64,000 bases of DNA from a bacterium (GCA_965219955.1 OZ244799.1:3008001-3072000), one strand, 5' to 3'; positions 71 to 60,840 are shown, counted from the first letter of the stretch. Translations and numbers: made by a program. The notes: generated from the sequence alone by a model not told the origin.

Positions 71-462
71 GGGGCCGTTGAAAAGGCCCGTCTGCGACTC
101 CCCGCAAACCGCCAACACCTCTTTCCTCACCCTGAGTAGCCGCCGAAGAGCCTGTCCTGAGCTTGTCGAAGGGCGGCGTATCGAAGGGCGCGGAGAGTCG
201 AACGCCTCGCGCCGGGTGAGGGCAAACACTCATTCATCAATCGCGTTTGACCTTCGATACGGCGCTTTCGCGCCTACTCAGGATGAGGAGTGTCGGGGAA
301 CGGCGGAGCCTGTCCCGAGCGAAGTCGAGGGGCCGCTACTCAGGATGAGGCGGAAGGGGGTTTTTCAACAGCCCCGACAAGGGGGGTAGGGGGGGTTGCT
401 TTTATGGGGTCTCGCTTTCAAGGGGGTTGCCATTACCCTCTCACGGGGTTTTTCGATAAATC
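71..462. repeat. Composite non-coding element: IS1182-like ends enclosing REP-like palindromes
   Basis: Left end GGGGCCGTTGAAAAGG at 71, right end TTTTTCAACAGCCCC ending at 375, and a degenerate second right end near 445-462. Internal CTCATCCTGAGTAG/CGTATCGAAGG and TGTCCTGAGCTTGTCGAAGG palindromic modules. 376-462 is a near-identical inverted copy of ~26316-26405. Confidence 0.8.
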
Positions 463-595
463 GACGACAAATTCTGGCAGGAAAATGCGGGGAATTGCGG
501 GGGCGAAATGCGCGCGAACCCCTTGCGGGCGCACGGAGAAACACCCGCCGGCCCAGCCGGACAGAACTTGCAAATACCTGGGAATAAAGGAGTTG

Positions 596-856
596 CTAGA
601 GGGCGCGCTCGCGCTTTTTGATGTCGGCCATCACCCTGGAGATGCCGCGCTTGGCGATGATCTTGAGGCCCTTCGCCGATACGCGCAGCTTCACCCAGCG
701 CTTCTCCTCAGGCAGGTAGAAGCGCTTGAAGTGCAAGTTCGCCTCGAAGCGCCGCCTCGTCTTCTTGTGCGAATGCGAGACGTTGTTGCCGTACATCACG
801 CTCTTGCCGGTGACGGCGCACCGCTTGCGCGCCACGGTGTTCTTGTGGGTTTTCAT
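596..856 (-). CDS. rpmB: 50S ribosomal protein L28
   Basis: RCAVTGKSVMYGNNVSHSHKKTRRRFEANL...VKLRVSAKGLK is the L28 signature. Start is ATG 856 (abuts the rpmG stop) or GTG 835. Confidence 0.95.
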   Translation of the reverse strand: MKTHKNTVARKRCAVTGKSVMYGNNVSHSHKKTRRRFEANLHFKRFYLPEEKRWVKLRVSAKGLKIIAKRGISRVMADIKKRERAL

Positions 857-1006
857 CTATTTGGTCTCCCGAAACGGCTGGTGGCTTCGGCAGAATTTAC
901 AGTACTTCTTGAATTCGAGCCGATCCGGCGTATTGCGCTTGTTCTTGGTGCTGGTGTAGCGCATCTTCTTGCAAGTCGTGCATTCGAGTTGAATGTTCTC
1001 GCGCAT
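857..1006 (-). CDS. rpmG: 50S ribosomal protein L33 (Zn-ribbon type)
   Basis: Absent from the ORF track; translated by hand as [49 protein letters not shown], with two CxxC motifs and a GAGG upstream. Confidence 0.95.
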
Positions 1007-1240
1007 CTCGAAACCTCATGTAAAATCGACGCCTCAGCAGGCGCCCAGCCACCTGTGGCCGGAAATGAAGCGAAACCATAGCCAAGCCCGGGAAAAAAGG
1101 CAAGCGCCGCGAGAGGTATTTTGTTCGTCTCTTATGCGCTAGAATCGCGTGTTCAAAATCACCGGGAAGCGGATGAAGCGCAATGTGTTTTTCGAGGCCC
1201 GCGCGCATCCGAATACTCCAACGTCGAAGGAGAGAGCACA

Positions 1241-2122: not shown

Positions 2123-2186
2123 TACAACGCGCCTGAAAGGGTTGTTGAAAAAACCCTGAAGAAAAATGAATCACTCCCCCCTTGAG

Positions 2187-3702
2187 GGGGCTGTTGAAAA
2201 ACCCCGTTTTGAAGCGGGCGGTATGGCGTCTCACGCGGCTTGGGAGATCAAGCCCAATCGGCGCGTGAGGCCGCGGGGAACGCGCATTCGGCGACTCGAG
2301 GCGGCGCAGGCCCGCCACAGGGCGAATATTCGCGCAGCAACAGCGGCGGCGAGCCGCTTGAGGTTCACCGCAGTCGCCGTCAGGTAGGCCTGGATCTTCA
2401 TGTTCTCCATACCCCGGCGCACCGCCCGCGCCAGTCCGTGCCAACTCTTCGCCTCCCCGTGGTAGCCCTCCGAGCGCCCCATGTGGCGGCGCCACAGCCG
2501 ACCCTCCTCCTCCCCCCGGCGCGCGTGGCGACGGCGCCCGCGCAACAGCGCCGGATACTCGTGCGGAATCAGCACCGTCCTGCTCGTGCGGGACTTCGAC
2601 AGACAATCGGCCCTAAGCGCGCAGCCCGCGCAATCGCGCGTCCTCGAACCATAGTAGCGCCCCCGCTCCGTCTCCTTCCGGGGACGCAGCGTCTTGCCCC
2701 CCGGACACTTCACCACCTTGTGACGCTCGTCGTAGCGGAACAACTGCAGCGGCACCCGGCTCTGGGAAGGCTCCTTCTTCGCCGGTATCACCGCGGCGAC
2801 CCCCCGACGCTCCAATGCGCCGTACACCTTCGAGTACGCATAGCCACTATCCGCCGTCACCACCGCGGGCGCGCGCCCCGTCAGTTCGCGAACCGCATCC
2901 AACTGCGGCTCCATCATCTCCCGCTCGTTCAAAGTCCCCGCCGTCACCTCTACGTCGAGAACCACCCCCCGCTCATCGTCCACCACCGCGTGGTGCTTGT
3001 AGCTCGGCTCGAAACCCGCCCGAGCGCTCTTGCGCGCAAGACGCGCGTCGGGGTCCGTTCGGCTCACAGGCCCCGAACCCCCGCCGCCGCCCTTCTTCCC
3101 CGTCTCATCCTCCGAATCGTTCTCCCGCACCACCTTCTCCGCGTGGCGCTCCGCCAGACTCTCCCAGCTCACGTCCGCCCGGATCAACGAAGCGTCCATG
3201 TGAACCACCTCTCCCGTCGCCACCTTCGCCTCCACGCAAGCCTGAACCGTGCGGCGCAATATCTCCTTGAACCGCTCCTCCCCCCAGCGCTGACGGATAC
3301 GCGTCAGGCTCGAATGGTCCGGCAACTCCTCGTCCAGCCTGTACCCGATGAACCACCGGATCGCCAGGTGCGCCTGCGCCTCGCGCAACAGACGCCGGTC
3401 GTGGGCGTAGCCCAGCAGCAGGCCCGCCAGCATCAACCGAACCACCACCTCGGGGTCCAGGCCCGGACGGCCATTGTCCGCGCAATAGCACGCCGCCACC
3501 TCCTCGCGAAGCCAGCTCAAATCCAGGACGCGGTCCACCTGCCGCAATATGTGATCTTCAGGAATCAACTTTTCCAGCGGGCCGGCCACGAACAAGTCCA
3601 TCTGCTCGCGCCTCTTGCGGTCCAGCATCGAGGGAACTCCCATCTCGGGCGAGTCGGGACAACTCCATACGATCACAAAACCAGGGCTTTTTCAACAGGC
3701 CC
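2187..3702 (-). mobile_element. IS1182-family insertion sequence
   Basis: Terminal inverted repeats GGGGCTGTTGAAAAACCCC and (reverse complement) GGGCCTGTTGAAAAAGCCC. Direct repeat TTGAG at 2182-2186 and 3703-3707. Contains an intact transposase. Confidence 0.9.
2231..3628 (-). CDS. IS1182-family DDE transposase
   Basis: LIPEDHILR, GRPGLDP, PDHSSLTRIRQRWG, MDASLIRA, TDPDAR, ADSGY and a Cys-rich insert (CAGCALRADC). The ORF extends to 3676; MLDRK start preferred. Confidence 0.9.
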   Translation of the reverse strand: MLDRKRREQMDLFVAGPLEKLIPEDHILRQVDRVLDLSWLREEVAACYCADNGRPGLDPEVVVRLMLAGLLLGYAHDRRLLREAQAHLAIRWFIGYRLDEELPDHSSLTRIRQRWGEERFKEILRRTVQACVEAKVATGEVVHMDASLIRADVSWESLAERHAEKVVRENDSEDETGKKGGGGGSGPVSRTDPDARLARKSARAGFEPSYKHHAVVDDERGVVLDVEVTAGTLNEREMMEPQLDAVRELTGRAPAVVTADSGYAYSKVYGALERRGVAAVIPAKKEPSQSRVPLQLFRYDERHKVVKCPGGKTLRPRKETERGRYYGSRTRDCAGCALRADCLSKSRTSRTVLIPHEYPALLRGRRRHARRGEEEGRLWRRHMGRSEGYHGEAKSWHGLARAVRRGMENMKIQAYLTATAVNLKRLAAAVAARIFALWRACAASSRRMRVPRGLTRRLGLISQAA

Positions 3703-4136
3703 TTGAGGGGGTTGTAGATAAACCCCTCGTCGGGGGACATTGCCTTTAGCGGGAAGGCCGATTTCGCGTGAAGCCGCGACCTACCCCTACAAAACCAACC
3801 CCCCCTACTCCCCCTTGTCGGGGCTGTTGAAAAAGTCCCTCGATGCGGGAACACCACCGTCATTCCGGCCTTGAGCCGGAATCCATTTTTATGATTTTTG
3901 CTTTCGTTTTCGCATTTGATTCCGATTCGCGGGAGAGAGCGTTGCGCCCGAATGCGGAACGGACGAGGCGGACATATACGGCGGCGTCCGTATTTTCCCC
4001 GGCCGGAAGTGAGGATGTCCGGGGGAAAGGCCAAAGACAAAGGCGAAAATGGATTCCGGCTCAAGGCCGGAATGACGAGCAAAGGCGAAGGTCAATCCCG
4101 AGCGAAGCAAGGCTTTTTCAACAACCCCCTGAAGCC

Positions 4137-5126: not shown

Positions 5127-5173
5127 CGATCCTCTCTCCTCTTTGATTCAGGATTTCCAGAAACCAGGACATT

Positions 5174-6415: not shown

Positions 6416-6427
6416 ATCCAAAACGCT

Positions 6428-12669: not shown

Positions 12670-12835
12670 GGGGTTGTTGAAAAAGCCTCATCAATCGGGC
12701 TCGACACGTAGGGGCGGGCCTCCGTGCCCGCCCGTATAGGGAATGTCTACCCCCGTAGTTTCCTCGGACAGGCACGGAGGCCTGTCCCTACGGCGAACAA
12801 TCTGGAAGGGCGGACAGGGCCTTTTCAACAACCCC
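12670..12835. mobile_element. MITE with IS1182-type ends carrying a pair of GTAG-type REPs
   Basis: GGGGTTGTTGAAAAAGCC...GGCCTTTTCAACAACCCC with flanking direct repeat TTGAA(G). Internal GTAGGGGCGGGCCTCCGTGCCCGCCC and an inverted GGACAGGCACGGAGGCCTGTCCCTAC. Confidence 0.85.
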
Positions 12836-21271: not shown

Positions 21272-21603
21272 GGGGCTGTTGAAAAAGCCCCGATTTCGTG
21301 ATTCGGCGTATGAAGCCGGCCGAGGAGGGGGATCCGTAGGGACAGACCCCTGTGCCTGGCCGAGGTTGCTTACGAGGCGGTTCGGTTTTGTTCGTCATTC
21401 CGGCAATCAATACCGACCGAGGAGGGAGGGATTGCCCGGAATCCATTTGTTTTGCCTTTGTTTTTCTTTTCTGATCGATTCGCTCCAATGGCGAGGAGAT
21501 GAAAAGCCGGGGTATCGTCTTTCTGCTTGAAAATGGATTCCGGCTTTCGCCGGAATGACGGCGGTGGTCGCTTCCGAGTGAGGAGGGGTTTTTCAACAGT
21601 CGC
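21272..21603. mobile_element. MITE with IS1182-type ends carrying GTAG-type and CGTCATTCCGG-type palindromes
   Basis: GGGGCTGTTGAAAAAGCCCC...GGGGTTTTTCAACAGTCGC with direct repeat CAAGG at 21267-21271 and 21604-21608. Confidence 0.82.
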
Positions 21604-21659
21604 CAAGGACCAAGACGAAGAAATACTTTTCAGCTCATTTCCCCTTTTGCGTCTCCATT

Positions 21660-21776
21660 GTGAAAGCGCATCTTTGCAATGATGGTGGAACGGCTCACAG
21701 GTTTCTCATAGTTTTCCCCGCTCGGCAACGAGGCGGGCCTTTCGGCGCCTGAAAGCCCCCGAGTTGACCACCCGCC
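21660..21776. repeat. ~117-bp direct repeat, copy 2
   Basis: Near-identical to 20619-20735. Confidence 0.92.
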
Positions 21777-21842
21777 TTCCGGCGTGGCATGAAGGGGCTG
21801 GAAATCCGGGCATTCCGCATCAACAACCGAAAAGGACGGCAC

Positions 21843-22886
21843 TTGGCTACAGAAATAAAAGTGATCGTATGCGGGTTCGGGCGCGTGGGGCGCGAATTCG
21901 CGAGACTCGTCCACGAGAAATCGGAACGCATGCGGGTGGCCTACGGCCTGGAGGCGTCCATCGTCGGCATAGGCGAGTTGAACGGCAGCCTGCACCACGC
22001 CTGCGGACTCGACGCGGCAAAAACGGCGGACGCCTTCGAACGGGAGGGCGGCTTCGCGGGCCACCCCAGCCTTAAGGCGGAGTGGCAGGGCCTCGATCTG
22101 GTTCGTTCCGCACAGGCCGACGTCCTCATCGAGACGACGCCCACCGAGGTCCGCACGGGCGAGCCCGCCATGAGCCACATCCGCGAGGCGCTTGCGAGAG
22201 GCATCCACGTCGTGAGCGCGAACAAGGGGCCTTTCATCCGCGCCTACCGGGAACTGACCGGCCTGGCGCGGGAGAAGAACGCCGCTCTCAAAATCTCGGC
22301 GGCCGCGGCCGCCGCCCTCCCGACCATCGACGTGGCCGAGACTTGTCTCGCCGGCGCAGAGATTCTCGAGGTCGAGGGCGTGCTGAACGGAACGACGAAT
22401 TTCATACTCACGCGCATGCGGACGAACGGCCGGAGCTACGAAGAAGCGCTCGCAGAAGCGCAAACACTCGGAATCGCGGAGACCGACCCCACACTCGACG
22501 TGGAGGGTTTCGACACGGCGAACAAGCTCGCCCTCATCACGAACGTCTGCATGGGTGCTGATCTTAGACCCGAGGACGTGGAGCGGACGGGCATCGCCGG
22601 GATGTCGCTCGCCGAGGTGCAAGGCGCGAGCGCAGCGGGCAAGATCATGCGCCTGGTGGGCGCCGCGAGGCGGGATGAGGCCGGACGCGTCTCGGCCCGG
22701 GTCGCGCCGGAACTTCTCTCTCCCGATCATCCCCTGGCGGGCGTGGAGGGGGCGGAGAAGGGCATCACCTACACGAGCGATACGATGGATCGCGTCACCG
22801 TCGTGGGCGGCAAGAGCGACCCGCGCGGCGCCGCCGCCGCGCTCCTCAAAGACCTCATCAACATTTATCGTCATTCATCATCCTGA
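21843..22886 (+). CDS. hom: Homoserine dehydrogenase (short form, no ACT domain)
   Basis: CGFGRVG, HVVSANKGP, GVLNGTTNFIL and AETDPTLDVEGFDTANK motifs. TTG start after AAGGA. Confidence 0.85.
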   Translation: MATEIKVIVCGFGRVGREFARLVHEKSERMRVAYGLEASIVGIGELNGSLHHACGLDAAKTADAFEREGGFAGHPSLKAEWQGLDLVRSAQADVLIETTPTEVRTGEPAMSHIREALARGIHVVSANKGPFIRAYRELTGLAREKNAALKISAAAAAALPTIDVAETCLAGAEILEVEGVLNGTTNFILTRMRTNGRSYEEALAEAQTLGIAETDPTLDVEGFDTANKLALITNVCMGADLRPEDVERTGIAGMSLAEVQGASAAGKIMRLVGAARRDEAGRVSARVAPELLSPDHPLAGVEGAEKGITYTSDTMDRVTVVGGKSDPRGAAAALLKDLINIYRHSSS

Positions 22887-24589: not shown

Positions 24590-24632
24590 TCGCACTTTCA
24601 CATACGAAACGACACCGAATCCGCTTGAGCAC

Positions 24633-24915
24633 GGGGTTGTTGAAAACCTCTCCTCGTCTTGAAAACCACCCCCCCCTACCCCCCCTTGACAGGGGGGTAA
24701 AAACAAAAAGCCCCCTGAAGCACTGGGGGTACGATGGTTTTGTAGGGACAGGCCTCCGTGCCTGTCCTGGTGAAGGACACCCACGGAGGGCAGGACAGGC
24801 ACGGAGGCCTGTCCCTACGATGAACGATTCGATGATCGGGATCCCCTCCCTCATCGGGGGCATGGCCTTTACCCCATAGGGGGTACTCCTTTGACGAGGG
24901 ATTTTCAACAGCCCC
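24633..24915. mobile_element. MITE-like element with IS1182-type ends and mixed REP cargo
   Basis: GGGGTTGTTGAAAACC...GGATTTTCAACAGCCCC. Contains CCCCCCTACCCCCCTTGACAGGGGGG and an inverted pair of GTAGGGACAGGCCTCCGTGCCTGTCC. No target duplication visible. Confidence 0.75.
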
Positions 24916-24969
24916 TGTTCAGGCGGATTCCGGGCTTCCGCCCGGTGTTATCCGGTGTTGCGTCGTTTC

Positions 24970-25066
24970 ATTATACTAGTAAATTAAATATTATATTTTT
25001 AATATACTAGGATATTATATGATTATCCTTGCAAATTAAAAGCATATATTTTAATATACAAGAATG
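24970..25066. promoter_or_regulatory. Two tandem AT-rich palindromes over the promoter/start of the AAA ATPase
   Basis: ATTATACTAGTAAATTAAA...TTTAATATACTAGGATA and ATTATCCTTGCAAATTAAAA...TTTTAATATACAAGAAT; the second overlaps ATG 25064. Confidence 0.6.
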
Positions 25067-26242
25067 ATTAATCGCCGCTCATATCAAAACGTGCTGAACG
25101 CGCTCGGACGCCAGGCCGCCGTGGTCCTGCTCGGCGCGCGCCAGGTAGGCAAAACGACGCTGGCGCTCGAGATTGCCGAAGGGTTAAACGCCGTTTATCT
25201 CGACCTGGAATCCCGCGCGGACCGGGAGAAGCTCGGCGAGCCTGCGCTCTATCTGCGCGAATACGAAGACAGCCTCGTCATCCTCGATGAGATTCACCGC
25301 GCCCCGGAGTTGTTTCAGGAGTTGCGCGGACTGATCGACCGGGGCCGCAGGCGGGGCAGGCGAACGGGCCGCTTCCTGATACTGGGTTCGGCGTCGCTGG
25401 ACCTGCTCCGCCAGTCGGGGGAGAGCCTCGCCGGGCGAATCGAATACGTCGAACTCGATCCGCTCGACGTGGGAGAGGCCGCGCCGGACGCGCAGGCCGT
25501 CACGAACCTGTGGGTGCGCGGGGGCTTTCCGGACAGCTTTCTCGCCAAAGACGACGCCGACAGCATGACCTTCAGGCAGAATTTCATCCGCTCCTATCTG
25601 GAGCGCGACGTGGCGCAGTTCGGCCGGCGCATCCCGGCGGAGACGCTGGAGCGGTTCTGGACCATGCTGGCGCATGGGCAGAGCGGGCTGCTCAACGCGT
25701 CGAAGCTGGCCGCGGGCCTCGCCGTCAGCGCACCGACGGTGAACGGCTACATCGATCTCCTGGTCGACCTGCTTCTCGTCCGCCGCCTGCGCCCGTTCCA
25801 CGCGAACGTGAAAAAGCGCCTGGTGAAATCGCCCAAAATCTACGTGCGCGACAGCGGCATCGTCCACGCCCTGCTCGGAATCGAGAACCACGACGCGCTC
25901 GCGGGCCACCCGGTCGTCGGGCCGAGTTGGGAGGGTTTCGTCATCGAGAACCTGCTCGCCGTCGCCCCGCCGCGCACCATGGCGAGTTTCTACCGCACGC
26001 TGGCGGGTGCCGAGATCGACTTGCTGCTGGAGATCCCGGGAAGGCGGGGGCCGTGGGCGATCGAGATCAAGCGCGGAATCTCCGGGGGTCTCGGCAAGGG
26101 CTTCCACCATGCGCGCGAGGACGTACGGCCCGAGCGCGCCTTCGTCGTCCACTCCGGCGAGGAGCGCTACCCCGTCACGAAGGACGTGGAGGCGGTCGGC
26201 CTGCGAGAGATGATGACCCTCGTCGAGCGCGGGGAGAAATAG
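25064..26242 (+). CDS. AAA+ ATPase with C-terminal DUF4143 / nuclease-like domain
   Basis: GARQVGKT, ILDEIH, LGSAS, ESLAGR, RGGFP, KSPKIYVRDSG, WEGFV and EIDLL...IEIK motifs. Confidence 0.88.
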   Translation: MINRRSYQNVLNALGRQAAVVLLGARQVGKTTLALEIAEGLNAVYLDLESRADREKLGEPALYLREYEDSLVILDEIHRAPELFQELRGLIDRGRRRGRRTGRFLILGSASLDLLRQSGESLAGRIEYVELDPLDVGEAAPDAQAVTNLWVRGGFPDSFLAKDDADSMTFRQNFIRSYLERDVAQFGRRIPAETLERFWTMLAHGQSGLLNASKLAAGLAVSAPTVNGYIDLLVDLLLVRRLRPFHANVKKRLVKSPKIYVRDSGIVHALLGIENHDALAGHPVVGPSWEGFVIENLLAVAPPRTMASFYRTLAGAEIDLLLEIPGRRGPWAIEIKRGISGGLGKGFHHAREDVRPERAFVVHSGEERYPVTKDVEAVGLREMMTLVERGEK

Positions 26243-26420
26243 GTGGAAAAATCCTTCTCCGCCTCATCCTGAGTAGCGGCGGAGCCGCGTATCGAAGGTC
26301 AAACGCGATTGATGAGGGCTTGTTGAAAAACCCCCTGAGAGGGCAATGGCAACCCCCTTGAAAGCAAAACCCCATAAAAGCAACCCCCCCTACCCCCCCT
26401 TGTCAGGGGGGCAAGAAAAA

Positions 26421-27805
26421 GAGTTACGTTCAAAACTTGTGTATGGGCTGAATTGAAGAAGGCGGCGCATCCTGCTGAAATAGGGTTGTCCAAAGCCCGG
26501 TCATTCAGCACAAGGAGATGCGCCACCATGAGAGAAGATACGACGATTCCCTTGAGGAATCCAGCCTTACGAGACGAGTTGAGCGAACTGTTGCGCGCGG
26601 GCGCGCGACGAATCATCCGCCAGGCGGTGGAAGCGGAGTTGGCGGCTTATCTGGAAGAGCATGCGGGCGACCATGACGCGCAGGGCCGCCGCGCGGTGGT
26701 GCGCAACGGGTATCTGCCTTCTCGGGAGGTATTGACGGGTGTGGGTCCGGTGCGGGTTCAAGTTCCTCGGACGCGGGACAGGTCGGGCGCGGGGCGGCGT
26801 TTCCGTTCGGAGCTTTTGCCGCCGTATCTGCGCAAGACGCGGCGCGTGGAGGCGGTGATACCGTGGCTGTACCTGAAGGGGGTATCGACGAACGACTTCG
26901 GCGAGGCGCTCACGGCGCTGTTCGGCGAGTCGGTGAAGGGCTTGTCCCCGGCGAGCGTCTCGCGTCTCAAGGAGGGCTGGGAGCGCGAGTACTTACAGTG
27001 GCGCGAGCGGGACTGGGGCGGCGAGGAGTTCGCGTACTTGTGGGCGGACGGCATCTACGTGAACGTGCGCAGCGGGGAGCGGCGCTGTCTTCTGGTGGTC
27101 GTGGGCTGCGACGCGCGGGGCCGCAAGCGCTTCCTGGCCCTGGAGGCGGGGTTCCGTGAATCGAAGGAGAGCTGGAAGGCGGTTCTGCTCGGCCTGCGGG
27201 AGCGGGGGGTAAAGGCGGCGAAGCTGGCGGTGGGCGACGGGGGTCTGGGGTTGTGGTCGGCGCTGGCCGAGGTGTATCCCGAGACCCGGGCGCAGCGCTG
27301 CTGGGTGCACAAGACGGCGAACGTTCTCGACAAGCTGCCCAAAAGCGCTCAGCGCGAAGCGCGGCCGATGCTGTACGAGATGTGGAGGGCGGAGACCCGC
27401 GAGCACGCGGAGAAGGCGTTCGAACGCTTTCTCGCCACCTGGGAGGCGAAGTACCCCAAGGCCGCCGCGTGCCTGGCGGGGGACCGCGAGGAGTTGTTCG
27501 CCTTCTACGACTTCCCGGCGGCGCACTGGCGGAGTCTTCGGACGACGAACCCGATCGAGTCGACCTTCGCCACGATCCGGCTGCGAACGGCGAAGACGAG
27601 GAACTGCCTGAGCGAGAAGACGGCGCTGAGCCTGATTCACCAACTCGCCATGAGCGCCGAGAAGCGATGGGGGCGGCTGGGCGGCCTGGGTCATCTGGCC
27701 GACGTGATCACCGACGTGAGGTTCATCAATGGGGTGAATGAAAAAGAAACCGGCAGGGAGGCCGCTGAACTCAAGACGGCCATACACAACATTTGACAGT
27801 AACTC
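26421..27805 (+). mobile_element. IS256-family insertion sequence
   Basis: 26-bp terminal inverted repeats GAGTTACGTTCAAAACTTGTGTATGG and (reverse complement) GAGTTACTGTCAAATGTTGTGTATGG. 9-bp direct repeat CAAGAAAAA at 26412-26420 and 27806-27814. Confidence 0.93.
26528..27796 (+). CDS. IS256-family (Mutator) transposase
   Basis: RNGY, VPRTRDR, LYLKGVST, YLWADG, VGDGGLG, QRCWVHK and RTTNPIES motifs; AAGGAG upstream. Confidence 0.93.
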   Translation: MREDTTIPLRNPALRDELSELLRAGARRIIRQAVEAELAAYLEEHAGDHDAQGRRAVVRNGYLPSREVLTGVGPVRVQVPRTRDRSGAGRRFRSELLPPYLRKTRRVEAVIPWLYLKGVSTNDFGEALTALFGESVKGLSPASVSRLKEGWEREYLQWRERDWGGEEFAYLWADGIYVNVRSGERRCLLVVVGCDARGRKRFLALEAGFRESKESWKAVLLGLRERGVKAAKLAVGDGGLGLWSALAEVYPETRAQRCWVHKTANVLDKLPKSAQREARPMLYEMWRAETREHAEKAFERFLATWEAKYPKAAACLAGDREELFAFYDFPAAHWRSLRTTNPIESTFATIRLRTAKTRNCLSEKTALSLIHQLAMSAEKRWGRLGGLGHLADVITDVRFINGVNEKETGREAAELKTAIHNI

Positions 27806-27943
27806 CAAGAAAAAGCAAAACCCCCTCGGCCCGGCGGGAGCGCATCGCCTTTTTATACCCCCCTGACAAGGGGGGGTAGGGGGGGTTGACGTTATGGGAT
27901 TTCCCTTTCAGGGAGCTTTTTCAGCAACCTCTATGCGCGGGCC

Positions 27944-28306
27944 TCAAAGAAACCGCGCGCCTTCGATGATCGCCTCATCGAAGTTCACGCCCTCGATGTC
28001 GGCGCCGACGAGATCCGCGTCCCGGAAGCTCGCGCCCGCGACGTCGGCATCATTCAAGAGAGCGTCTCGGAGAACAGCGCCCTCCAGATCGGCGTTTCTC
28101 AGATCCGCCTCACGCATGTCCGCACCCGAGAGGTCGGCGCCGCCCAGGTTCGCGCGCACGAGGCTCGCCCCTTTCAGATTGGCGTCCGTGAGGTCGCATC
28201 CGCTCAGGTCCGCCCAGGAGAGGTCTTCCCCCTCCAGCGAGAGCGGCTCGCCCTTCTGCGCGGCTTCTTCAATCAGTTGCTCCAGCTTCTCTCGCAGCAT
28301 GTTCAT
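27944..28306 (-). CDS. Pentapeptide repeat protein
   Basis: Tandem A(D/N)LxG/xADLxx repeats; start codon uncertain (28300-28321). Confidence 0.88.
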   Translation of the reverse strand: MNMLREKLEQLIEEAAQKGEPLSLEGEDLSWADLSGCDLTDANLKGASLVRANLGGADLSGADMREADLRNADLEGAVLRDALLNDADVAGASFRDADLVGADIEGVNFDEAIIEGARFL

Positions 28307-28344
28307 GATAGGGAAAATCATAAATCAGACAGGCAAACTTGCAA

Positions 28345-28744
28345 GGGGCTGTTGAAAAACCTCTCTCCGCCTCATCCTGAGTAGCGGCCCCTCGACTTCG
28401 CTCGGGACAGGCTCCGCCCCCCACTTTCCTCATCCTGAGTAGCCGCCGAAGGCGGCGTATCGAAGGATGCCCTCTCGCACGCCAGGAGCCGCCCCCCATC
28501 CTTCGATACGGCGCTTAAGCGCCTACTCAGGATGAGGGTTCGGGGCACTTGCTCGGGATGAGGGCGTCAAGCGTTCTACGAAGCCCGGTGCCGCGCCATG
28601 GGTCAATCCCGCCCGGCGACCCCTACACATTCCTCTTGAATGGCGACCGTAGGGACAGGTCGCGACCTGTCCCTACCAAAACACAATCGCCCGCTTTTCG
28701 CTCGTGTCAAACCCTTCCTCATCGGAGCTTTTTCAACAACCCCC
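28345..28744. mobile_element. MITE with IS1182-type ends and mixed REP cargo
   Basis: GGGGCTGTTGAAAAACCTC...GAGCTTTTTCAACAACCCCC with flanking direct repeat TGCAA. Three CTCATCCTGAGTAG modules plus GTAGGGACAGGTCGCGACCTGTCCCTAC. Confidence 0.82.
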
Positions 28745-37958: not shown

Positions 37959-38055
37959 GGGAGCGCATCGGTGCTGGTGTGCCGCCTGGACTTCAAATCC
38001 AGTGGACGGGGCTAATCACTTCGTCGGTGGGTTCGACTCCCACGCGTTCCCGCCA
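37959..38055 (+). tRNA. selC: tRNA-Sec (anticodon TCA)
   Basis: 8-bp acceptor stem GGGAGCGC/GCGTTCCC plus GCCA, anticodon arm CTGGA-CTTCAAA-TCCAG, long variable arm, T arm GTGGG-TTCGACT-CCCAC; 97 nt. Confidence 0.95.
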
Positions 38056-45411: not shown

Positions 45412-45446
45412 CCGGCCGGGGCGTGAATCAACCACGCCCTGGCCGG
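45412..45446 (+). terminator. Intercistronic stem-loop (attenuator or mRNA stabiliser)
   Basis: CCGGCCGGGGCGTG-loop-CACGCCCTGGCCGG followed by TGATTTT, right after the substrate-binding protein gene. Confidence 0.6.
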
Positions 45447-45481
45447 TGATTTTGATTTAACGTCTGCCGCTGGGTGGCTCA

Positions 45482-46399
45482 ATGGCCGGATATGTCGTAA
45501 AGCGCTTGATTCAGGCAATCGTCCTCCTCAAGTGCGTCATGATCATCGTGTTTCTCCTGCTTCACATGACGGGCGACCCCGTCCTGGTGATGCTCGATAC
45601 CGATGCGACCCACGAAGACATCGAGCACCTGAGAAAACTCATGGGGTTCGACCAGCCGCTCCACGTGCAGTACGGGCGTTTTTTCAAAAACGCCTTGCAG
45701 GGGAACTTCGGAGAATCCACCGAACACGGCGAATCGGCCATGGGCCTCGTTCTGGAACATTTTCCGGCGACGATTGAGATGGCGGTCGGGGCCTTCGTTT
45801 TCGCCGTCATCATCGGGATTCCCTTCGGCTGCCTGGCGGCCTTCCGGGAAGGCTCGGCTTACGACAAAAGCTGCGTGGGCATCACGGTGCTGATGCAGGC
45901 GGTTCCGGATTTCTGGCTGGCGATCATGTTCATCATGTTCTTCTCCGTGACGCTGGGGCTTCTGCCTTCCTTCGGCCGAGGCGGGTGGGAGCATTTCATC
46001 ATGCCGGCTTTCGCCGCCTCCACGTATCACCTCGCCCGGCTCGCGAGGCTCATGCGCTCCCAGATGCTGGAGGTGCTGCGCCAGGACTACATCACCACGG
46101 CGCGGGCGAAGGGGCTGAGCGAGAAAATCGTGCTCATGGTCCACGCCTTGAAGAATTCCTCGATCCCCATCGTCACCGTCATGGGGCTGGATTTGGGCAT
46201 TCTTCTCGGCGGAACGGTAATCATCGAGGTGGTTTTCGCCTGGCCGGGGGTCGGGCGGCTGGTGGTCGATTCGATCGCGAACCGCGATTTCCCGATCGTC
46301 CAGGCCGCCGTGTTTCTTCTGGCGTCGGGGTTCGTGATCATCAATCTGACGGTGGACTTGGTCTACGCCTATCTCGACCCGCGGATCAGTTACGAATGA
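45482..46399 (+). CDS. ABC transporter permease (DppB/OppB-like)
   Basis: GDP, DYITTARAKGL EAA loop, EVVFAWPGVG and YAYLDPRI motifs. Confidence 0.92.
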   Translation: MAGYVVKRLIQAIVLLKCVMIIVFLLLHMTGDPVLVMLDTDATHEDIEHLRKLMGFDQPLHVQYGRFFKNALQGNFGESTEHGESAMGLVLEHFPATIEMAVGAFVFAVIIGIPFGCLAAFREGSAYDKSCVGITVLMQAVPDFWLAIMFIMFFSVTLGLLPSFGRGGWEHFIMPAFAASTYHLARLARLMRSQMLEVLRQDYITTARAKGLSEKIVLMVHALKNSSIPIVTVMGLDLGILLGGTVIIEVVFAWPGVGRLVVDSIANRDFPIVQAAVFLLASGFVIINLTVDLVYAYLDPRISYE

Positions 46400-52673: not shown

Positions 52674-52802
52674 GGAATTATGCTTTTATTCTTGAATAAA
52701 CGGCGCGCGCCGTGTCATATCTGTATGCAGGCGGCGAGACCGGCGCCCCCTGGACGAGGTGAAGCGAAGGCGCAAAATTTTCTCCGGTGAACGGGCCTTG
52801 GA

Positions 52803-54329: not shown

Positions 54330-54407
54330 GGACGATCCGGCGCGCTATTTGATTCGAATGGCTGAGAGAAGAAAGTTTTGCGTGGCGCAAAAACGAGCGC
54401 GCATCAT

Positions 54408-54947
54408 TCACGACTCCGACAATGCGCTTCTTAACCGAGCAACGAACGCAACGGCCTCCTGTGCCTCGTCAAAGCTGATATGCGGTTTTCGCTCGACGAT
54501 TTCAGCCGCCATCGCATTGGGGGTTATCTCCTTTTTCTCTTTCGAGACATAATACGCCGTGGCGTATCTCTCCAAGGCTGCTACGCCCATGTCAGCGAAT
54601 TTGTCCGCGCTCGCCTGCACTTCTTTTGCGTATTTTTGTATTGGTTCGGGATAGGCTTTTTTCAAGACTTCCGCGTTTTCGGCGGGCACCAGTTTCGGCC
54701 CATAGGGACGCCGTTGCGGCTGCAATTTGAGAACATCATTCGCCCGCATCCAGGATATCTCGTCGCTCAAATCAAAGGAAAAGGGTCCATGTTTGTAAAG
54801 AATAAAATCGAGATCCAGCGGGACGCCCCATAAATCCTGCAAGAAATAGGTGCTTTTTTGAACGTGCGTCTCCCCGCACCAACTGTGGCCGTCCCGTAGC
54901 TTCTCGATCAAGGACAACAAGACGGCGGCCCTCTCGAATCGCTCCAT
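54408..54947 (-). CDS. YwgA/SocA(Panacea)-like protein
   Basis: VQKSTYFLQ...FILYKHGPFSFDL pattern; 5 bp downstream of the HD gene. Confidence 0.6.
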   Translation of the reverse strand: MERFERAAVLLSLIEKLRDGHSWCGETHVQKSTYFLQDLWGVPLDLDFILYKHGPFSFDLSDEISWMRANDVLKLQPQRRPYGPKLVPAENAEVLKKAYPEPIQKYAKEVQASADKFADMGVAALERYATAYYVSKEKKEITPNAMAAEIVERKPHISFDEAQEAVAFVARLRSALSES

Positions 54948-54952
54948 GTCTC

Positions 54953-56278
54953 CTATCCCCCCTCGGCGGATGAAAGGATTTCCTCTCTATTTTTTCTGAG
55001 CCAGTCACTGGCTCGATTCCTAATTTCGGATGAAACGAAAACATGATCGCAAGAAGCCGGGGGAACCCTCGAAAACGTTTCTTTCTCGCTTGCTGCTTCC
55101 GCGATTCTCCTTCCCTGAACGAGAACCGGAAAATTATTCTCGTCATTCTCCTGATTTGCTTGAACATGCTTTACATGTTTCTCGCCAAATTCCCTAGATG
55201 CAGCTTCATATATTTTCCTGCCCGGTTTCAAGACCGAAAGTTTTCTGTCTTCGGCAGTCGGCCTATAGATACTTTTGAAATGCCGTCGATGAACTATGCG
55301 GTCAGCATGCAAATGGGCGGGATGCGACTCGTCTCCGGCGATAGATAACATGGCGGATATTACTTCATTGTCCGTATGTTTCAAATGCCCGGCGCAATCC
55401 GTTGGGAACATCCCCCCATCCAACCACGATTTCAAGAAATCCGACAAATGCTCATCATAAATGAGGCGTACTGGGTGAAAATATATTTGCGAGAACATGA
55501 AATATCGCGCAAGCAGCAATGCCTCGGCGGATTCCAGGCCGCCTTCTTCGACACCCAGAACCGGTTCCTGAGAACCACCCGTTTCTTGTTTCGGCAAAAT
55601 TCTCATTGTGTCAATCAGGCGGTAATGATCAAATTTCCCGTAAGCAACGCCCGCGTGATACGAATCACGCAGCAGATAATCCATCCTGTCGGCCCCGAAA
55701 ACATCCCCCGTGATAATTTCCGATAAAATGCTCTCCCATTCATCGAGATCAACATTCATATAATCTTTCGATTTTTGGGGTCCAATCGCTAATTTGGCGA
55801 CATTCTGCGGCTGCACATCTATTTCTTTCCAAACATTCTCCATCCCCTCGCTCAAAATCATTTCCATCGTTATGCGCTCATGATCCCAACCCTGCGGCAA
55901 CAATTCTTCCGACGCATGGGAAAACGGCAGATGGCCCAGGTCATGGCATAGCGCTGCGAGCCTCAATGTTCTTCGCCATTTCAGATGATCGAGGTCCCTA
56001 TACTTTGGAATAATATTTCTGACGGAAGCGGATTCCTGATAAACATTTTCCGGCTCCGTCACGACATCATATATTTTGCTCGCGAGTTCCATCACGCCGA
56101 GTGAATGCTCGAACCTCTTGTGAGTTGCGCCCGGGTAGACGAGATAGCTTAAAGCCAGTTGGTGGATATGGCGCAATCGCTGAAAGGGAGGAGAATCAAG
56201 AACTTTCCGCTCATCAGAATCCAGTCTGATAAATACATGGATGGGATCTCGTATTTCGTGTGTTCTTTTTCTCACCAT
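54953..56278 (-). CDS. HD-domain phosphohydrolase (SAMHD1/YwfO-like dNTP triphosphohydrolase family)
   Basis: IRDPIH, FQRLRHIHQL, HKRFEHSLGV, CHDLGHLPFSH, ADRMDYLLRDS and ARYFMFSQIYFH motifs. Confidence 0.9.
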   Translation of the reverse strand: MVRKRTHEIRDPIHVFIRLDSDERKVLDSPPFQRLRHIHQLALSYLVYPGATHKRFEHSLGVMELASKIYDVVTEPENVYQESASVRNIIPKYRDLDHLKWRRTLRLAALCHDLGHLPFSHASEELLPQGWDHERITMEMILSEGMENVWKEIDVQPQNVAKLAIGPQKSKDYMNVDLDEWESILSEIITGDVFGADRMDYLLRDSYHAGVAYGKFDHYRLIDTMRILPKQETGGSQEPVLGVEEGGLESAEALLLARYFMFSQIYFHPVRLIYDEHLSDFLKSWLDGGMFPTDCAGHLKHTDNEVISAMLSIAGDESHPAHLHADRIVHRRHFKSIYRPTAEDRKLSVLKPGRKIYEAASREFGEKHVKHVQANQENDENNFPVLVQGRRIAEAASEKETFSRVPPASCDHVFVSSEIRNRASDWLRKNREEILSSAEGG

Positions 56279-56424
56279 AGAAGAAGTATATCATATTTTC
56301 GTATAATTATCGCCATAAAAATTACGAATATTGAATTTGGTCAGTCGATAAAATGAATACACAAACGACATAGCGCGGGTAGAGCCAGCATAAAATATAT
56401 TCTTGACGGAAAATAAACTCCCCC

Positions 56425-56952: not shown

Positions 56953-57038
56953 CGGCGGTTCTCCTCTCGGGGTCGTTCATCCGGAAATTTGCTACAATGG
57001 CGAAAACATTCTCTTCTCTCATCCTAGCGAGGTATCGC

Positions 57039-57464: not shown

Positions 57465-57781
57465 GTTTCGAGCGATTCCACAAAGGCGGCGATTCCCTCC
57501 TCGAGCGCGAAGCTGTGCCGCCAGCCTGTTTCTCGCTTAAACGCTCTCGCGTCGAGTTCGGGTTCGGCCAGGCTGTACGTCACGATCGACTGGGCCGCCA
57601 GATGGTGGATGACGTCGGGGCGCGCCTCTTCCACCAGGCGGACTACCTCGAAGACACGGTGGCCTTCGAGGCCGCAGGCCCCATCCGCCTGGATAATTTC
57701 GCGGGCTACCTCCACGAGGATACGCATTTCATCGACCAGCGGTATCTGGCGGAGGACATGGAGCGAGAGCAGGCCGGGTAG
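57461..57781. pseudogene. Mosaic of gene fragments (deletion scar)
   Basis: Minus strand has epimerase-like pieces (EEARPDVIHHLAAQSIV; TGWRHSFALEEGI). Plus strand 57630-57781 reads like a startless C-terminus with normal codon bias. Confidence 0.5.
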
Positions 57782-57789
57782 GGGGTTCC

Positions 57790-58241
57790 GTAGGGAGAGG
57801 CCCCTGTGCCTGTCCGGGGTCGCGACCTGTCCCTACAGCTGAACCCCGGAATGACGATCAAACGTCGCACCCACCGTAGGGGCGGTTCGCGAACCGCCCT
57901 TGGTGGAGGAACGGGCGCTTCACGAAGCGCCCCTACACTCCCTTTGTCAAGGGAATACCCCCCCTACCCCCCTTTGTCAGGGGGGGTAAAAACCCTCGCT
58001 TCGCATGGGATTGACCTTCGCCTTTGTTCGCCATTCCGGCAATCAATGCCGACCGAGGAGGGAGGGATTGCCCGGAATCCAGGGGCTTTGTTTTTGAATT
58101 TGCCTTTTCGCTTTATCGTTTTTCTTGCTCTTCCTGCGATTCGGTATCCCTGTCTGCTCTGGATTCCGGCATGCGCCGGAATGACGGTAGACAATCTCGA
58201 TTGGGGTCAGGAGCCCCTTAGGGGACTTTTTCAACAACCCC
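57790..58241. repeat. REP-module cluster ending in an IS1182-type right end
   Basis: Several GTAG palindromes, CCCCCCTACCCCCCTTTGTCAGGGGGG, a CATTCCGG...CCGGAATGACG pair and ACTTTTTCAACAACCCC; no matching left end found. Confidence 0.78.
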
Positions 58242-58419
58242 CTGGGAGTGAATTTGACCAATCCTGCGAGAGAGGAATCATTTCAAGCGGAAGAATGCTC
58301 GACGGAATACGAGCGTGAAACTCCAAGTCGCCCCGCTCGTTTTGCCGGAACCGCCCGCTCCTGATAGCCTTGGGCGCAAGTTCCAGGGCAAACGAGTTCG
58401 TTGTAAGGAGAAATCCGGT

Positions 58420-59412
58420 TTGGGCAGATACCTCGTCACGGGCGCTGCGGGCTTCATCGGCTCCAGGGTGTGCGAATTCCTGTTGGATGAGAAGCACGCC
58501 GTCGTGGGGGTCGACGACATGAACGACGCCTACGACACGCGGCTGAAAGACTACCGGCTCGCGCGTCTCAAGGCGCGGCCCGGTTTCGTCTTTCATGAAG
58601 CCGACATCACTCGCGCCGACCCCTTGCGCGCGCTGTTCGCGGAAAACGCCGGAGGCGGCGCGCCGCCTTTCGACGCCGCCCTGAACCTGGCCGCGCGCGC
58701 GGGCATAAGGCAGTCCATCGAAGACCCCGGGGCGTATTTCGAGACCAACGTTACCGGCGCGCTGAACCTCCTGGAGCTCTGCAAGGATTTCGGCGTCATG
58801 AAATTCGTACTCGCCTCCACCTCGAGCGCCTACGGGGCGGATGCGCCCGCTCCATTCCGGGAAGACGCCCCGAGCGACAGGCCGCTATCGCCCTACGCGG
58901 CTTCCAAGAAAGCGGCCGAGGCGCTCTGTTACACCTACCACCATCTATACGGGATCGACGTGAGCGTGCTGCGCTATTTCACCGTCTACGGTCCGGCGGG
59001 ACGGCCCGACATGAGCCTTTTCCGCTTCACGCAGTGGATAGCGGAGGGAAAGCCCGTGCTCGTGTATGGAGACGGAACGCAGTCGCGCGATTTCACCTAC
59101 GTGGACGACATCGCCCGCGGCACGATCGCAGCCATCAAGCCGCTCTCTTATGAGATCATCAACCTGGGCTCGGACGAACCCGTCGTCTTAAGCGACGCCA
59201 TCGCCCGCATCGAAGCCCTCACGGAGAAGAAGGCCCGGATACGCCATGAGGAGAGCAACCCCGCCGACGTAAAAGCCACGTGGGCGAACATCGGCAAGGC
59301 GGAGAGACTCCTGGGCTGGCGGCCGCAGGTGAGGCTCGCAGAGGGCCTCGCGCATCTGGTCGAGTGGTACAACGCCAACCGCGATTGGGCGAAAGATATT
59401 CGAACCGACTAG
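58420..59412 (+). CDS. NAD-dependent epimerase (UDP-glucuronate 4-epimerase-like)
   Basis: TGAAGFIG, NLAARAG, ASTSS, YAASKK, LRYFTVYGPAGRPDM and RDFTYVDD motifs; AAGGAG RBS. Confidence 0.9.
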   Translation: MGRYLVTGAAGFIGSRVCEFLLDEKHAVVGVDDMNDAYDTRLKDYRLARLKARPGFVFHEADITRADPLRALFAENAGGGAPPFDAALNLAARAGIRQSIEDPGAYFETNVTGALNLLELCKDFGVMKFVLASTSSAYGADAPAPFREDAPSDRPLSPYAASKKAAEALCYTYHHLYGIDVSVLRYFTVYGPAGRPDMSLFRFTQWIAEGKPVLVYGDGTQSRDFTYVDDIARGTIAAIKPLSYEIINLGSDEPVVLSDAIARIEALTEKKARIRHEESNPADVKATWANIGKAERLLGWRPQVRLAEGLAHLVEWYNANRDWAKDIRTD

Positions 59413-59520
59413 CAAAGCCCGTGCGCTGCGACGATTTCCCCTCCCTGTGCGTTCCCCCACAAGGGCGCGATATACTAAACTGGCCGGAAAACTTTTACTC
59501 CATTTGCGGCGGGAGAAGAC

Positions 59521-60561
59521 ATGAAGGCAATGGTATTGGCGGAACCGGGCGCGCCCTTCGTCCTGGAGGAACGGCCCATCCCCGAAGCGGGGCCGGGCGA
59601 GGCCGTGGCGCGCGTGCTGGCCTGCGGCTCGGGGCTTACGATCGAACACACGCGCGCGGGGCGCATGGGCGGGAATTTCCCGCTCGTGATAGGCCACGAA
59701 ATCACCGCAGAGATCACGCAGGTGGGCGCGGGCGTGGAGGAGCTGCGGGAAGGCGCGCCCGTGACGGCGTATTACTATTTCACCTGCGGACACTGCCGCT
59801 GGTGCCGCATCAACCGCGAGACGCTGTGCGAGAATCTCGCAGGCCAGGTCGGCCGCCAGATGGACGGCGGCTACGCCGAGTACATCAAGCTGCCCGCCCG
59901 GAACTTCATCCCCCTGCCCGAGGAGCTGGACTACAAGGCGCACCCCGCCGAGGTGAGCGTCATCTGCGACGCCCTGGCCACGCCGTACAAGGTGATCGGC
60001 CACGCGGGAATCCGCCCGATGGAGAACGTGGCCGTGGTGGGCGCGGGCGGCGGCGTGGGAATCCACATGGTGATGATGGCCCGCTGGGCGGGCGCGCGCG
60101 TCATCGCCGTCGACATCGCGGCCGACAAGCTGGGCAAATGCCGCGACATGGGCGCGCACGATACGGTGGATGCGTCCCGGGAAAACCTGGGCGAAGCGTT
60201 CCGGGATTTGACCGGTGGCGCGGGCGCCGATGTCGTCGTCGATTTCGTCTGCACCGCCGAGGGGGTCGAGGGCGGACTGCGCGGACTGGGCAAGGGGGGC
60301 CGCTTCCTCGCCATGGGGGCGAACCGGATAGAGCGGTTCCCCTTCTCTCCGCGCGAGTTGCTCCGCGAGGAGCAGCAGATCATGGGCAGCCGCTACGCCA
60401 CCAAGCAGGACGTGGTCGACTCGCTCGAACTCGCGGCGCGCGGCGAGGTCTGGCCATTGGTGAGCGAAACCTACCCGCTCGAAGAAGCCAATCTCGTGCA
60501 TGAGCGCTTGAAAGAAGGCCTGGTTACCGGGCGCGCCGCCCTGGTGATGTCCCAGGAATAG
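59521..60561 (+). CDS. Zinc-binding alcohol dehydrogenase family protein
   Basis: GHE, CGHCRWC...C structural Zn site and GAGGGVG. Confidence 0.9.
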   Translation: MKAMVLAEPGAPFVLEERPIPEAGPGEAVARVLACGSGLTIEHTRAGRMGGNFPLVIGHEITAEITQVGAGVEELREGAPVTAYYYFTCGHCRWCRINRETLCENLAGQVGRQMDGGYAEYIKLPARNFIPLPEELDYKAHPAEVSVICDALATPYKVIGHAGIRPMENVAVVGAGGGVGIHMVMMARWAGARVIAVDIAADKLGKCRDMGAHDTVDASRENLGEAFRDLTGGAGADVVVDFVCTAEGVEGGLRGLGKGGRFLAMGANRIERFPFSPRELLREEQQIMGSRYATKQDVVDSLELAARGEVWPLVSETYPLEEANLVHERLKEGLVTGRAALVMSQE

Positions 60562-60582
60562 AAGACGCTTTCAGGTCCTTCG

Positions 60583-60840
60583 GGGGTTGTTGAAAAACCC
60601 TGTTTCGGGGTCGGCGGCATGGAAGTTCACGCGGCGCAGGCGCGATGGTTTTGCAGCAGGACAGGCACGGGGAGGCCACGGACAGGCGCAGGAGCCTGTC
60701 CGCTACGGGCGAATGCGGTTTTGATCGTCATTCTGCTTGAAAATGGATTCCGGCTTTCGCCGGAATGACGGCTGTGGTCAATTCCGACCGAGGATGCCTT
60801 TTCAATAAGCCTTTGTCAGGCGGGGTTATTCAACAAGCCC
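60583..60840. mobile_element. MITE with IS1182-type ends and mixed REP cargo
   Basis: GGGGTTGTTGAAAAACCC...GGGTTATTCAACAAGCCC with direct repeat CTTCG at 60578-60582 and 60841-60845. Second internal right end near 60797-60812. Confidence 0.8.

Follow-up and report, generated by a model that had tools for sequence, protein, structure and literature searches.

IS1272, an insertion sequence (IS) of the IS1182 family, targets inverted-repeat structures and replaces stem-loops; it is reported to make no target duplication, to delete part or all of the hairpin and to use targets without a common sequence, and the model of its authors also includes a pathway in which the loop alone is duplicated (PMC5678879). 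In staphylococci, TnSha1 and IS1272 insert into hairpins, terminators included (PMC4923244). Here, we analyse a 64,000-nt stretch of DNA (the window) from the one-contig genome G000 (4,283,615 bp, 60.9% G+C) of a sponge-associated bacterium, in which a 1516-bp IS1182-family IS at 2187-3702 lies among short cassettes that carry its ends and enclose assorted palindromes, repetitive extragenic palindromic (REP) sequences among them. With a probability of roughly 0.8, these cassettes are miniature inverted-repeat transposable elements, or MITEs, that share a ~15-bp terminal inverted repeat with the IS, are moved by it in trans and have captured REP cores. Coordinates without a genome label are positions in the window, and labels such as G011 denote genomes of the same genus; G011 itself is the closest relative, and its syntenic contig aligns to the window at 92-96% identity.

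REP sequences can also be IS targets, as with IS1397 and ISKpn1 of the IS3 family, which insert into the loop of a repeated palindrome; to our knowledge, neither has spawned REP-carrying cassettes. In the TIMEs, which are inverted-repeat miniature elements derived from the Tn3 family and associated with the name of Szuplewska and the year 2014, short end pairs reportedly mobilise whatever lies between them and so give mosaic non-autonomous transposons. The transposase of TIMEs belongs to another family than the one found here, and we know of neither hairpin targeting nor REP cores in these elements.

Among described MITEs, the Correia/NEMIS, RUP, ERIC and Nezha families (listed in PMC3733652) are small, non-coding, hairpin-forming and intergenic, occur in hundreds of copies, have target duplications and share their terminal inverted repeats with a resident IS, and the cassettes resemble them in all these features; unlike them, the cassettes have REP-dimer cores, target themselves and turn over at fixed sites. 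In two of the palindrome types found here, E and A, the hairpins bear a GTAG tag and form inverted dimers, as they do in the REP doublets forming hairpins (REPINs) that are associated with REP-associated tyrosine transposases (RAYTs) (PMC3116915). For CGTC repeats, the relevant passages of a 2013 survey report no dedicated transposase, and they note that longer palindromes enclose some REP dimers, in Anabaena variabilis and Halothiobacillus neapolitanus (Di Nocera et al., 2013; PMC3733652).

A sequence-only reading of this stretch had put the cassettes forward as the best candidate for an undescribed system, a label that is too strong, given that MITEs are known, that hairpin targeting by IS1272 is published and that REP dimers in palindromes were noted in 2013. 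What is new is the use of one end pair for many REP and other palindrome cores, the 5-nt loop duplication with targets that regenerate themselves, and the turnover at fixed sites. The portions of the IS1272 and TnSha1 reports considered here describe no comparable MITE swarm (PMC5678879; PMC4923244), the main text of a 2024 MITE census in Nucleic Acids Research mentions neither IS1182 nor 'nested' (PMC11602168), and literature searches limited to the articles themselves turned up no family of IS1182-derived MITEs that has REP cores.

Shared ends, 5-bp duplications and empty sites

The end motif GGGGYTGTTGAAAAA occurs 22 times in the window with at most two mismatches, compared with a mean of 0.22 after shuffling, and none of 100 shuffles reached 22, so the terminal repeat that had been read as common to many loci is indeed shared. 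One match at 45680, with two mismatches and no partner, is by appearance a chance occurrence. At the same threshold, G000 contains 519 forward and 482 reverse ends (1001 in total), which stack pairing joins into 370 pairs (median length, 300 bp); the 322 pairs of 800 bp or less make up 2.1% of the genome. It is highly probable that the cassettes form a non-autonomous MITE family of ~500 copies, very abundant in this sponge-associated bacterium. As to habitat, between 20 and 47% of sampled words of a 9.9-kb stretch were found in sponge, marine and coral metagenome contigs from several studies, and three such metagenome runs cover all 30 depth bins of a 19.9-kb stretch.

The autonomous member of this family is the IS at 2187-3702. 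Its transposase open reading frame (ORF), at 2231-3676 on the minus strand, encodes 481 aa and matches the NCBIfam model NF033551 (IS1182) with 346.7 bits (cut-off 270), while the next-best model, IS5_4, reaches 98.7 bits and stays under its cut-off of 140; the Pfam domains found are DUF772, DDE_Tnp_1_6 and DDE_Tnp_1. Four intact copies, 96.5-100% identical in nucleotide sequence, are present in G000. The 15-bp ends of the cassettes are identical or near-identical to those of this IS, the duplications are 5 bp long in cassettes and IS copies alike, and the cassettes are small, non-coding and multi-copy, with palindromes as interiors. At the sequence level, the cassettes thus have every feature by which MITEs of an IS1182-family IS are recognized, and both the shared ends and the length of the duplication suggest that the IS transposase would move them in trans and make the 5-bp duplication.

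Exact 5-bp flank matches were found in 58 of the 370 pairs at offset 0, compared with 1, 2, 3, 0 and 1 at five control offsets, and the duplications first proposed from a handful of loci are therefore more frequent than chance across the genome. The commonest duplications are CTCAA, TTGAG, TTGTC and GACAA. When the 322 short elements are ranked by identity to their closest full-length partner (16 have one at >=98% and 45 at >=95%), exact duplications flank 15 of the 45 elements with a partner at >=95%, compared with 19 of 169 in the oldest class.

Precise empty sites, with no cassette and a single copy of the duplication, were read in congeners and also in an independent contig from a metagenome. 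For example, six genomes (G002, G012, G008, G006, G004 and G010) have a single TGCAA and no cassette at the position of the 28345-28743 element. The site of the 2138-4128 element is empty in G024, G026 and G021, where the junction was read and holds a single CTGAA or CTGAG, and the element is absent, as judged by adjoining matches, from G028, G030, G008, G006 and G029. At 21272-21603, G002 is empty with a single CAAGG, and 337 bases (the 332-bp cassette plus 5) are skipped both by one contig of X5, a sponge metagenome DNA run, with a shorter side of 126 bases, and by one contig of X20, an RNA-library run, with a shorter side of 35 bases; this comparison took in the contigs of four runs, and uncovered parts were not counted as evidence. 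In addition, G028 is empty at the 60583 site, and an element elsewhere in the genome, G000:728269-728427, is missing from all five relatives searched. The relatives are too rearranged for reading at G000:2552337 (L124) and, in G012 and G024, at G000:4056218. The enrichment of duplications, the empty sites and the existence of multi-copy composites together support the proposal that cassettes bounded by IS1182-type ends move as units.

The palindromes lie within these units. Between neighbouring ends 60-600 bp apart, there are 294 intervals in the left-to-right (L→R) order and 19 in the right-to-left (R→L) order; type A is found in 92 of the former, D in 75, E2 in 99 and F in 44, and the corresponding numbers for the latter are 1, 0, 0 and 0, so the palindromes are inside end pairs and not between elements. 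Palindrome types A-E are present in the window as previously described; a sixth, type F (CTCCCCCC-TTGAG-GGGGAG), had been overlooked, as had an IS256-family IS at 26421-27805.

The earlier reading also held that cassette interiors are not copies of one another, which is true inside the window, but genome-wide the 322 short elements make 137 clusters, with 104 singletons and with 40, 35, 21, 20, 11 and 11 members in the six largest. The cores of these large clusters are F (40), A (35), variants of E (21, 20 and 11) and A+B (11), and the composite types A+D, D+E and E+D recur in 4-6 copies each, with different duplications. When arms were defined as the 75 bases inward of each end, 68 multi-member classes were obtained, and the 322 elements use 137 chimeric pairing combinations. 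Arms colinear with the two subterminal regions of the IS number 7 and 5 of 1001, of which 4 each belong to IS copies, and past the ends a resemblance to the IS is found in only 3 of the 993 non-IS arms. With so few, the IS did not give rise to the interiors by deletion (interiors that align as deletion derivatives of one ancestral element had been named as an outcome that would speak against the proposal); in this, and in enclosing many unrelated cores in one end pair, the cassettes differ from the Correia-like MITEs. An origin of arm classes 6 and 14 in the IS's left subterminal region was considered and rejected, as BLAST finds just the 3 colinear non-IS arms.

Hairpin-loop targets and possible exchange of cassettes at fixed sites

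A C-run/G-run hairpin holds the IS at 2187-3702 in its loop, and TTGAG, the duplication originally claimed for the IS, flanks it on both sides. The same setting recurs in related metagenome-assembled genomes (MAGs, listed as 'MAG: bacterium'), where 38 of 42 fetched IS loci have both ends: 30 of these copies have a C-run to their left together with a G-run to their right, 7 have one of the two and 1 has neither, and an exact 5-bp duplication is found in 23 of the 38. With the spacing fixed at 5 nt, C-runs or G-runs lie beside 37 of the 38 IS copies of relatives and all four copies in G000, one of which has unlike flanks (CTCAA and GACAA). Across all 1001 ends, position -7 is C in 668.

Two hairpin types serve as targets, namely F and C (CCCCCCTACCCCCCC-TTGTC-AGGGGGG). 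Since IS copies sit in the 5-nt loops of both, C and F are landing pads as well as cores; type C had been listed as cargo, which it is, but it is also a preferred target of the IS, as is the unlisted F. Each element starts with GGGG and ends with CCCC, and a C-run/5-nt/G-run site is re-formed at each junction, so copies nest and abut. Consistent with this rebuilding of the target at both junctions, a right end is followed by a left end at a spacing of 4 or 5 bp in 11 of 331 neighbouring pairs, and by none at 0-3 or 6-7 bp.

The likeness to IS1272 and TnSha1 therefore covers the IS family assigned by NCBIfam, the hairpin targets and the loop-only duplication pathway (PMC5678879; PMC4923244). 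In contrast to IS1272, the 5-bp loop duplication is the rule here (with the 23 of 38 exact cases above), and the hairpins are those of two specific repeat families. These observations would be explained by a transposase that prefers the 5-nt loop of C-run/G-run hairpins, and the cassette itself, as a long stem-loop, could serve well as substrate and as target alike. Each cassette as a whole can form a single hairpin that has both ends at the base. Folded as single-stranded DNA, the 12670-12835 cassette is one long hairpin with its ends paired (z = -6.7), and the 21272-21603 cassette is a single long hairpin with the ends paired at its base (z = -4.5). A conserved hairpin within each end, with bases 1-5 opposite 16-20, was sought by covariation and discarded: pairing is frequent (65-90%), but both sides hardly vary, and positions 5 and 16 show no covariation.

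Mosaic cassettes probably arise by nesting, abutment and the loss of inner ends. Ectopic exchange or gene conversion by the host between modules shared by dispersed copies offers another origin for the mosaics, and one can point to arm class 0, which pairs with at least 10 partner classes, to the many pairing combinations, to the many young elements with unlike half hairpins on the left and right, and to the IS copy with mismatched flanks. We regard host recombination as rather improbable, however, because cassette types share only 15-20 bp of end, which is short for homologous exchange, and because rearrangements would be expected, yet the window is colinear with G011 save for local indels.

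Close relatives often hold different cassettes at one site, as is the case for 4 of the 5 examined sites that are occupied in both G000 and G011. At the CTGAA site (2138-4128), the cassette measures 1991 bp in G000, 274 bp in G011, 119 bp in G002 and 411 bp in G012, and end variants as well as cores differ. G011 has a 279-bp cassette with a C core at the 12670 site, where G000 has an E core, and a C-core cassette at the 28345 site, where G000 has a cassette of types A, B and E. The 60583 site holds one cassette family with the same duplication in both genomes; what sets the copies apart is a D remnant and a doubling of the right end. Elsewhere, a young copy (99% identity) at G000:4056218-4056408 has no duplication of its own and shares its right junction with a different G011 cassette. 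Over the whole window, the alignment with G011 contains 11 gaps of at least 50 bp, at least 8 of which involve cassettes; for annotation, this one element family explains ~2% of the genome and most large window indels between close relatives.

Such differences suggest that a resident cassette may be swapped for another at the same site, for which the stem-loop replacement described for IS1272 offers a mechanism by analogy and would be the likely route (PMC5678879). We put forward, as a tentative proposal, that the transposase acts on folded DNA, recognizing the cassette as a stem-loop that has its two ends at the base, inserting it into hairpin loops and in one step exchanging it for a resident copy while the old duplication is kept, in which case the sites would be exchangeable slots. 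A possible but doubtful alternative to one-step replacement is that the same pattern arises by repeated insertion at hot spots, or by slow remodelling through nested insertion and deletion. Several observations fit this alternative: the target preference of the enzyme is strong, G003 and G022 carry separate insertions ~15 bp from the CTGAA site, tandem junctions of the form R-5 bp-L and doubled right ends are the intermediates expected of insertion followed by deletion, and the G012 cassette at the CTGAA site has an internal right end. It is harder to reconcile with the identical CTGAA, which is not a C/G hairpin, in four genomes, when eight more distant congeners are empty; with four CTGAA cassettes that have unlike ends and cores and did not arise from each other by simple deletion; or with the 99%-young G000 copy that, without its own duplication, occupies the right junction of a different G011 cassette. 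The data presented here extend the unusual hairpin-directed chemistry of IS1272 to a distant, uncultured sponge-associated lineage and suggest cassette replacement at fixed sites as a further consequence of that chemistry.

REP families with and without the carrier

Type D has the structure CGTC-ATTCCGGC-GAAA-GCCGGAAT-CCA and occurs as 136 dimers; for the GTAG-tagged inverted dimers of types E and A, 194 E dimers were found by pattern. From its CGTC tag, 8-bp stem starting with AT, 4-nt loop, CCA tail and mostly dimeric arrangement, type D fits the description of the CGTC-1 REPs (PMC3733652). In that survey, the outer palindromes around REP dimers are treated as targets and no transposase is given for them in the passages considered, whereas the outer palindrome here is the end pair of a DDE-type IS, with duplications and empty sites (PMC3733652). 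In H. neapolitanus, a 41-bp palindrome surrounds all CGTC-1 dimers and, as described in the text of the survey, resembles the end motif (GGG..CTTGAAAAACC) (PMC3733652); by this resemblance, it may mark another IS1182-type carrier.

A search of the complete G000 contig for Y1_Tnp (PF01797), the domain of RAYTs, returned no matches, and the control search was positive in 6 of 14 named genomes; the RAYT genes that were to be looked for near the REPs are therefore lacking in G000. In this respect, the cassettes depart from the REPIN-RAYT system, as their dimers lie in DDE-type end pairs with 5-bp duplications. We know of no case in which RAYT or IS200-type movement makes 5-bp duplications.

Exact copies of the end motif number from 0 to 413 in 23 genus genomes, 17 of which are positive, and D REPs number 36-261 in end-positive genomes, tracking the motif counts, with G007 as the exception. 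An E2 21-mer has 230 occurrences in G000, between 8 and 61 in each of 13 further end-positive genomes and none in the 6 end-less genomes, a comparison among related and hence non-independent genomes. Within G000, 218 of 256 copies of an E2-related 12-mer probe lie 300 bp or less from an end.

In our reading, the REP families predate the carrier and were taken up by the cassettes, which would now account for most of their copies in the RAYT-less G000. The earlier proposal that a DDE transposase has become the carrier of REP families is partly supported, in that the REPs lie within end pairs and no RAYT is present, but REPs also persist without this carrier, as G007 illustrates.

Several observations weigh against the overall explanation favoured here. 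The congener G007 has 86 D REPs and dense clusters of GTAG REPs, with no end motif and no match to the IS; at up to three mismatches, 4 end-like matches occur in 30 overlapping 3-kb loci, and the REPs lie in clusters like those of BIMEs (bacterial interspersed mosaic elements). In G000, most REPs are within end pairs and a minority stand alone, at 23 loci for A, 59 for D and 30 for E2; a degenerate end lies near 7, 19 and 5 of these, respectively, which is close to the background of 22%. Because G007 has them without ends or IS and G000 has stand-alone loci, the REPs do not depend on the carrier. Inside the shared 60583-60840 cassette, G000 has a 43-bp D remnant that is missing cleanly from G011 (L077), and in four paralogous cassettes of G000 this position is filled by a full D dimer; modules therefore change within cassettes independently of the ends. 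As for duplications, an exact copy flanks only 58 of 370 pairs (16%) and only one third of the youngest elements, and the recent insertion at G000:728269 has an imperfect one; the low rate reflects either a second mode of insertion that makes no duplication or noise in the pairing of ends. Some pairs of 99%-identical elements have flanks in common; such pairs are copies of one larger, nested unit and do not represent independent insertions. Finally, the cassettes ~15 bp from the CTGAA site in G003 and G022 mean that the swap there could be an independent hot-spot insertion.

These findings raise the possibility that REPs A, D and E spread by a route of their own, with a lost or undetected RAYT or another enzyme, and that the DDE element is a bystander, REPs and MITEs merely accumulating together because both favour hairpin-rich intergenic spots. 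Beyond G007, the stand-alone loci and the variable D remnant, this alternative can draw on matches to Y1_Tnp, weak or partial, that were obtained for 11 of 22 congeners and on the 5' flank GGTTT[T/C] that is conserved on REPs of both G000 and G007. Nevertheless, we consider it unlikely, because neither G000 nor G011 has a Y1_Tnp domain and the best RAYT-like gene of the congeners, a 168-aa ORF in G006, has no GTAGGG in its 3.4-kb locus; because REPs are found in L→R interiors and not in R→L gaps; because whole cassettes with given REP cores are multi-copy with different duplications; and because E2 is 4 to 29 times more common in the RAYT-less G000 than in any relative, with most probe copies near ends. 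Two other candidate links were examined and dropped. GGTTTT upstream of D and E dimers was considered as a slot in the MITE scaffold, and since the same flank precedes GTAG REPs in G007, which lacks the terminal inverted repeats, it belongs to the REP unit; and a connection to RAYTs through congeners fails in that the best Y1-like genes, in G006 and G008, have no flanking E REPs. The G007 loci L093-L122 are crowded with clusters in which GTAG REPs of no fewer than four variants accompany the CGTC REP, and the CGTC REPs are often paired ~122 bp apart with tags inward, the reverse of the G000 arrangement.

If the tentative proposal of exchange on folded DNA is correct, orphan REPs would gain a DDE-based route of movement, both for the CGTC type and, where the RAYT has been lost, for the GTAG type. 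The occurrence of a CGTC-1-type dimer in hundreds of cassettes with the ends of an identified, intact DDE IS makes the proposition that a DDE enzyme can move REP dimers testable.

Cassettes and neighbouring features in the window

Of the nine loci that had been read as end-bounded, eight have two facing ends, but the ninth, at 57790-58241, has a right end alone; in addition, the first ends at 375 and not 462, and the sixth begins at 26316 and not 26243. The five 5-bp duplications claimed for them (CTGAA, TTGAA, CAAGG, TGCAA and CTTCG) were each read in the sequence.

The first cassette (71-375) has A and B cores, a left end with two mismatches and a right end at 361-375; it is nested between hairpin halves, its flanks are unmatched (TTGAG on the left, GACAA on the right), and it has near copies of 86-96% identity elsewhere in G000. 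The adjoining stretch (376-462) is an arm of a C-type element, with the hairpin half GGGGGGTAGGGGGG, and is the reverse complement of the arm at 26316-26400. The outer composite cassette at 2138-4128 is bounded by CTGAA, with its right end at 4114-4128. Inside it, an F half-hairpin and the IS are followed by a degenerate left end (3708-3722), an arm of C type and an inner D unit, a CGTC REP dimer, that the end pair 3820/4128 bounds. At 12670-12835, a 166-bp cassette with a GTAG REP dimer as its core (type E) is flanked by TTGAA, and its apparent target is CCCC-TTGAA-GGG. The 332-bp cassette at 21272-21603, duplicating CAAGG, combines half an E REP with a D (CGTC) REP dimer.

At 24633-24915, a cassette made of a C hairpin and an E REP dimer has no matching duplication. 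The C-type cassette at 26316-27931 has long inverted arms and is split by the IS256-family IS (26421-27805), a 1385-bp element (NF033543, 323.7 bits, cut-off 150) with a 9-bp duplication, CAAGAAAAA, that lies in the centre of the C-type element. This IS has five identical copies in G000, four of them in or beside C-type palindromes and two at the same central site in opposite orientations; with it, a second IS shows a preference for a repeat family. Between these cassettes (24916-26315), a gene at 25064-26242 encodes an ATPase with AAA_14 and DUF4143 domains and has AT-rich tactagtaaattaaa-like repeats on its flanks. In place of 24600-27915, G011 holds one 306-bp cassette, and for this reason the ATPase gene block appears to have been inserted into a cassette.

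Further along, a cassette of ~400 bp at 28345-28743, flanked by TGCAA, contains A, B, A and E cores. The locus at 57790-58241 consists of an E REP cluster, a C hairpin and a D dimer, with a right end at 58227-58241 and no left end found. At 60583-60840, the cassette has an E-type core, the D remnant, two tandem right ends and the duplication CTTCG.

Several of these cassettes lie close to genes. At 2138/4128, 21603 and 60583, intervals of 9-27 bp separate cassettes from stop codons; for example, 27 bp lie between the 21272-21603 cassette and the stop of the minus-strand ORF 21630-22874, and the 60583-60840 cassette begins 22 bp beyond a stop at 60561. The 28345-28743 cassette, in turn, is 24 bp from the start of a pentapeptide-repeat ORF (27944-28321, minus strand). 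Along with the very stable hairpin folds and the reported presence of IS1272 and TnSha1 in terminator hairpins (PMC4923244), the nearness to stop codons might suggest that the host keeps cassettes for a function, as terminators or as stabilisers of mRNA at gene ends, and that core diversity reflects selection. This explanation is improbable, since cassettes are present, absent or replaced among close relatives at every site examined, which argues against site-specific conservation, and since a position near stop codons is expected of a hairpin-seeking element in any case.

Rfam matched tRNA-Sec alone in the window (RF01852, 75.9 bits, at 37959-38051) and none of the cassettes. A 2-kb segment of low G+C content (53%) at 54347-56420 contains the coding sequence of a protein with an HD domain (54953-56278, minus strand) and a 179-aa ORF that no Pfam model matches; in G011, a 290-bp stretch with a cassette replaces this segment. 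At 45446-45482, G011 has ~860 bp of extra sequence that has no cassette ends. The stretches 60874-62267 and 62456-63849 are adjacent and ~90% identical, forming tandem paralogous genes of which relatives have two or three copies.

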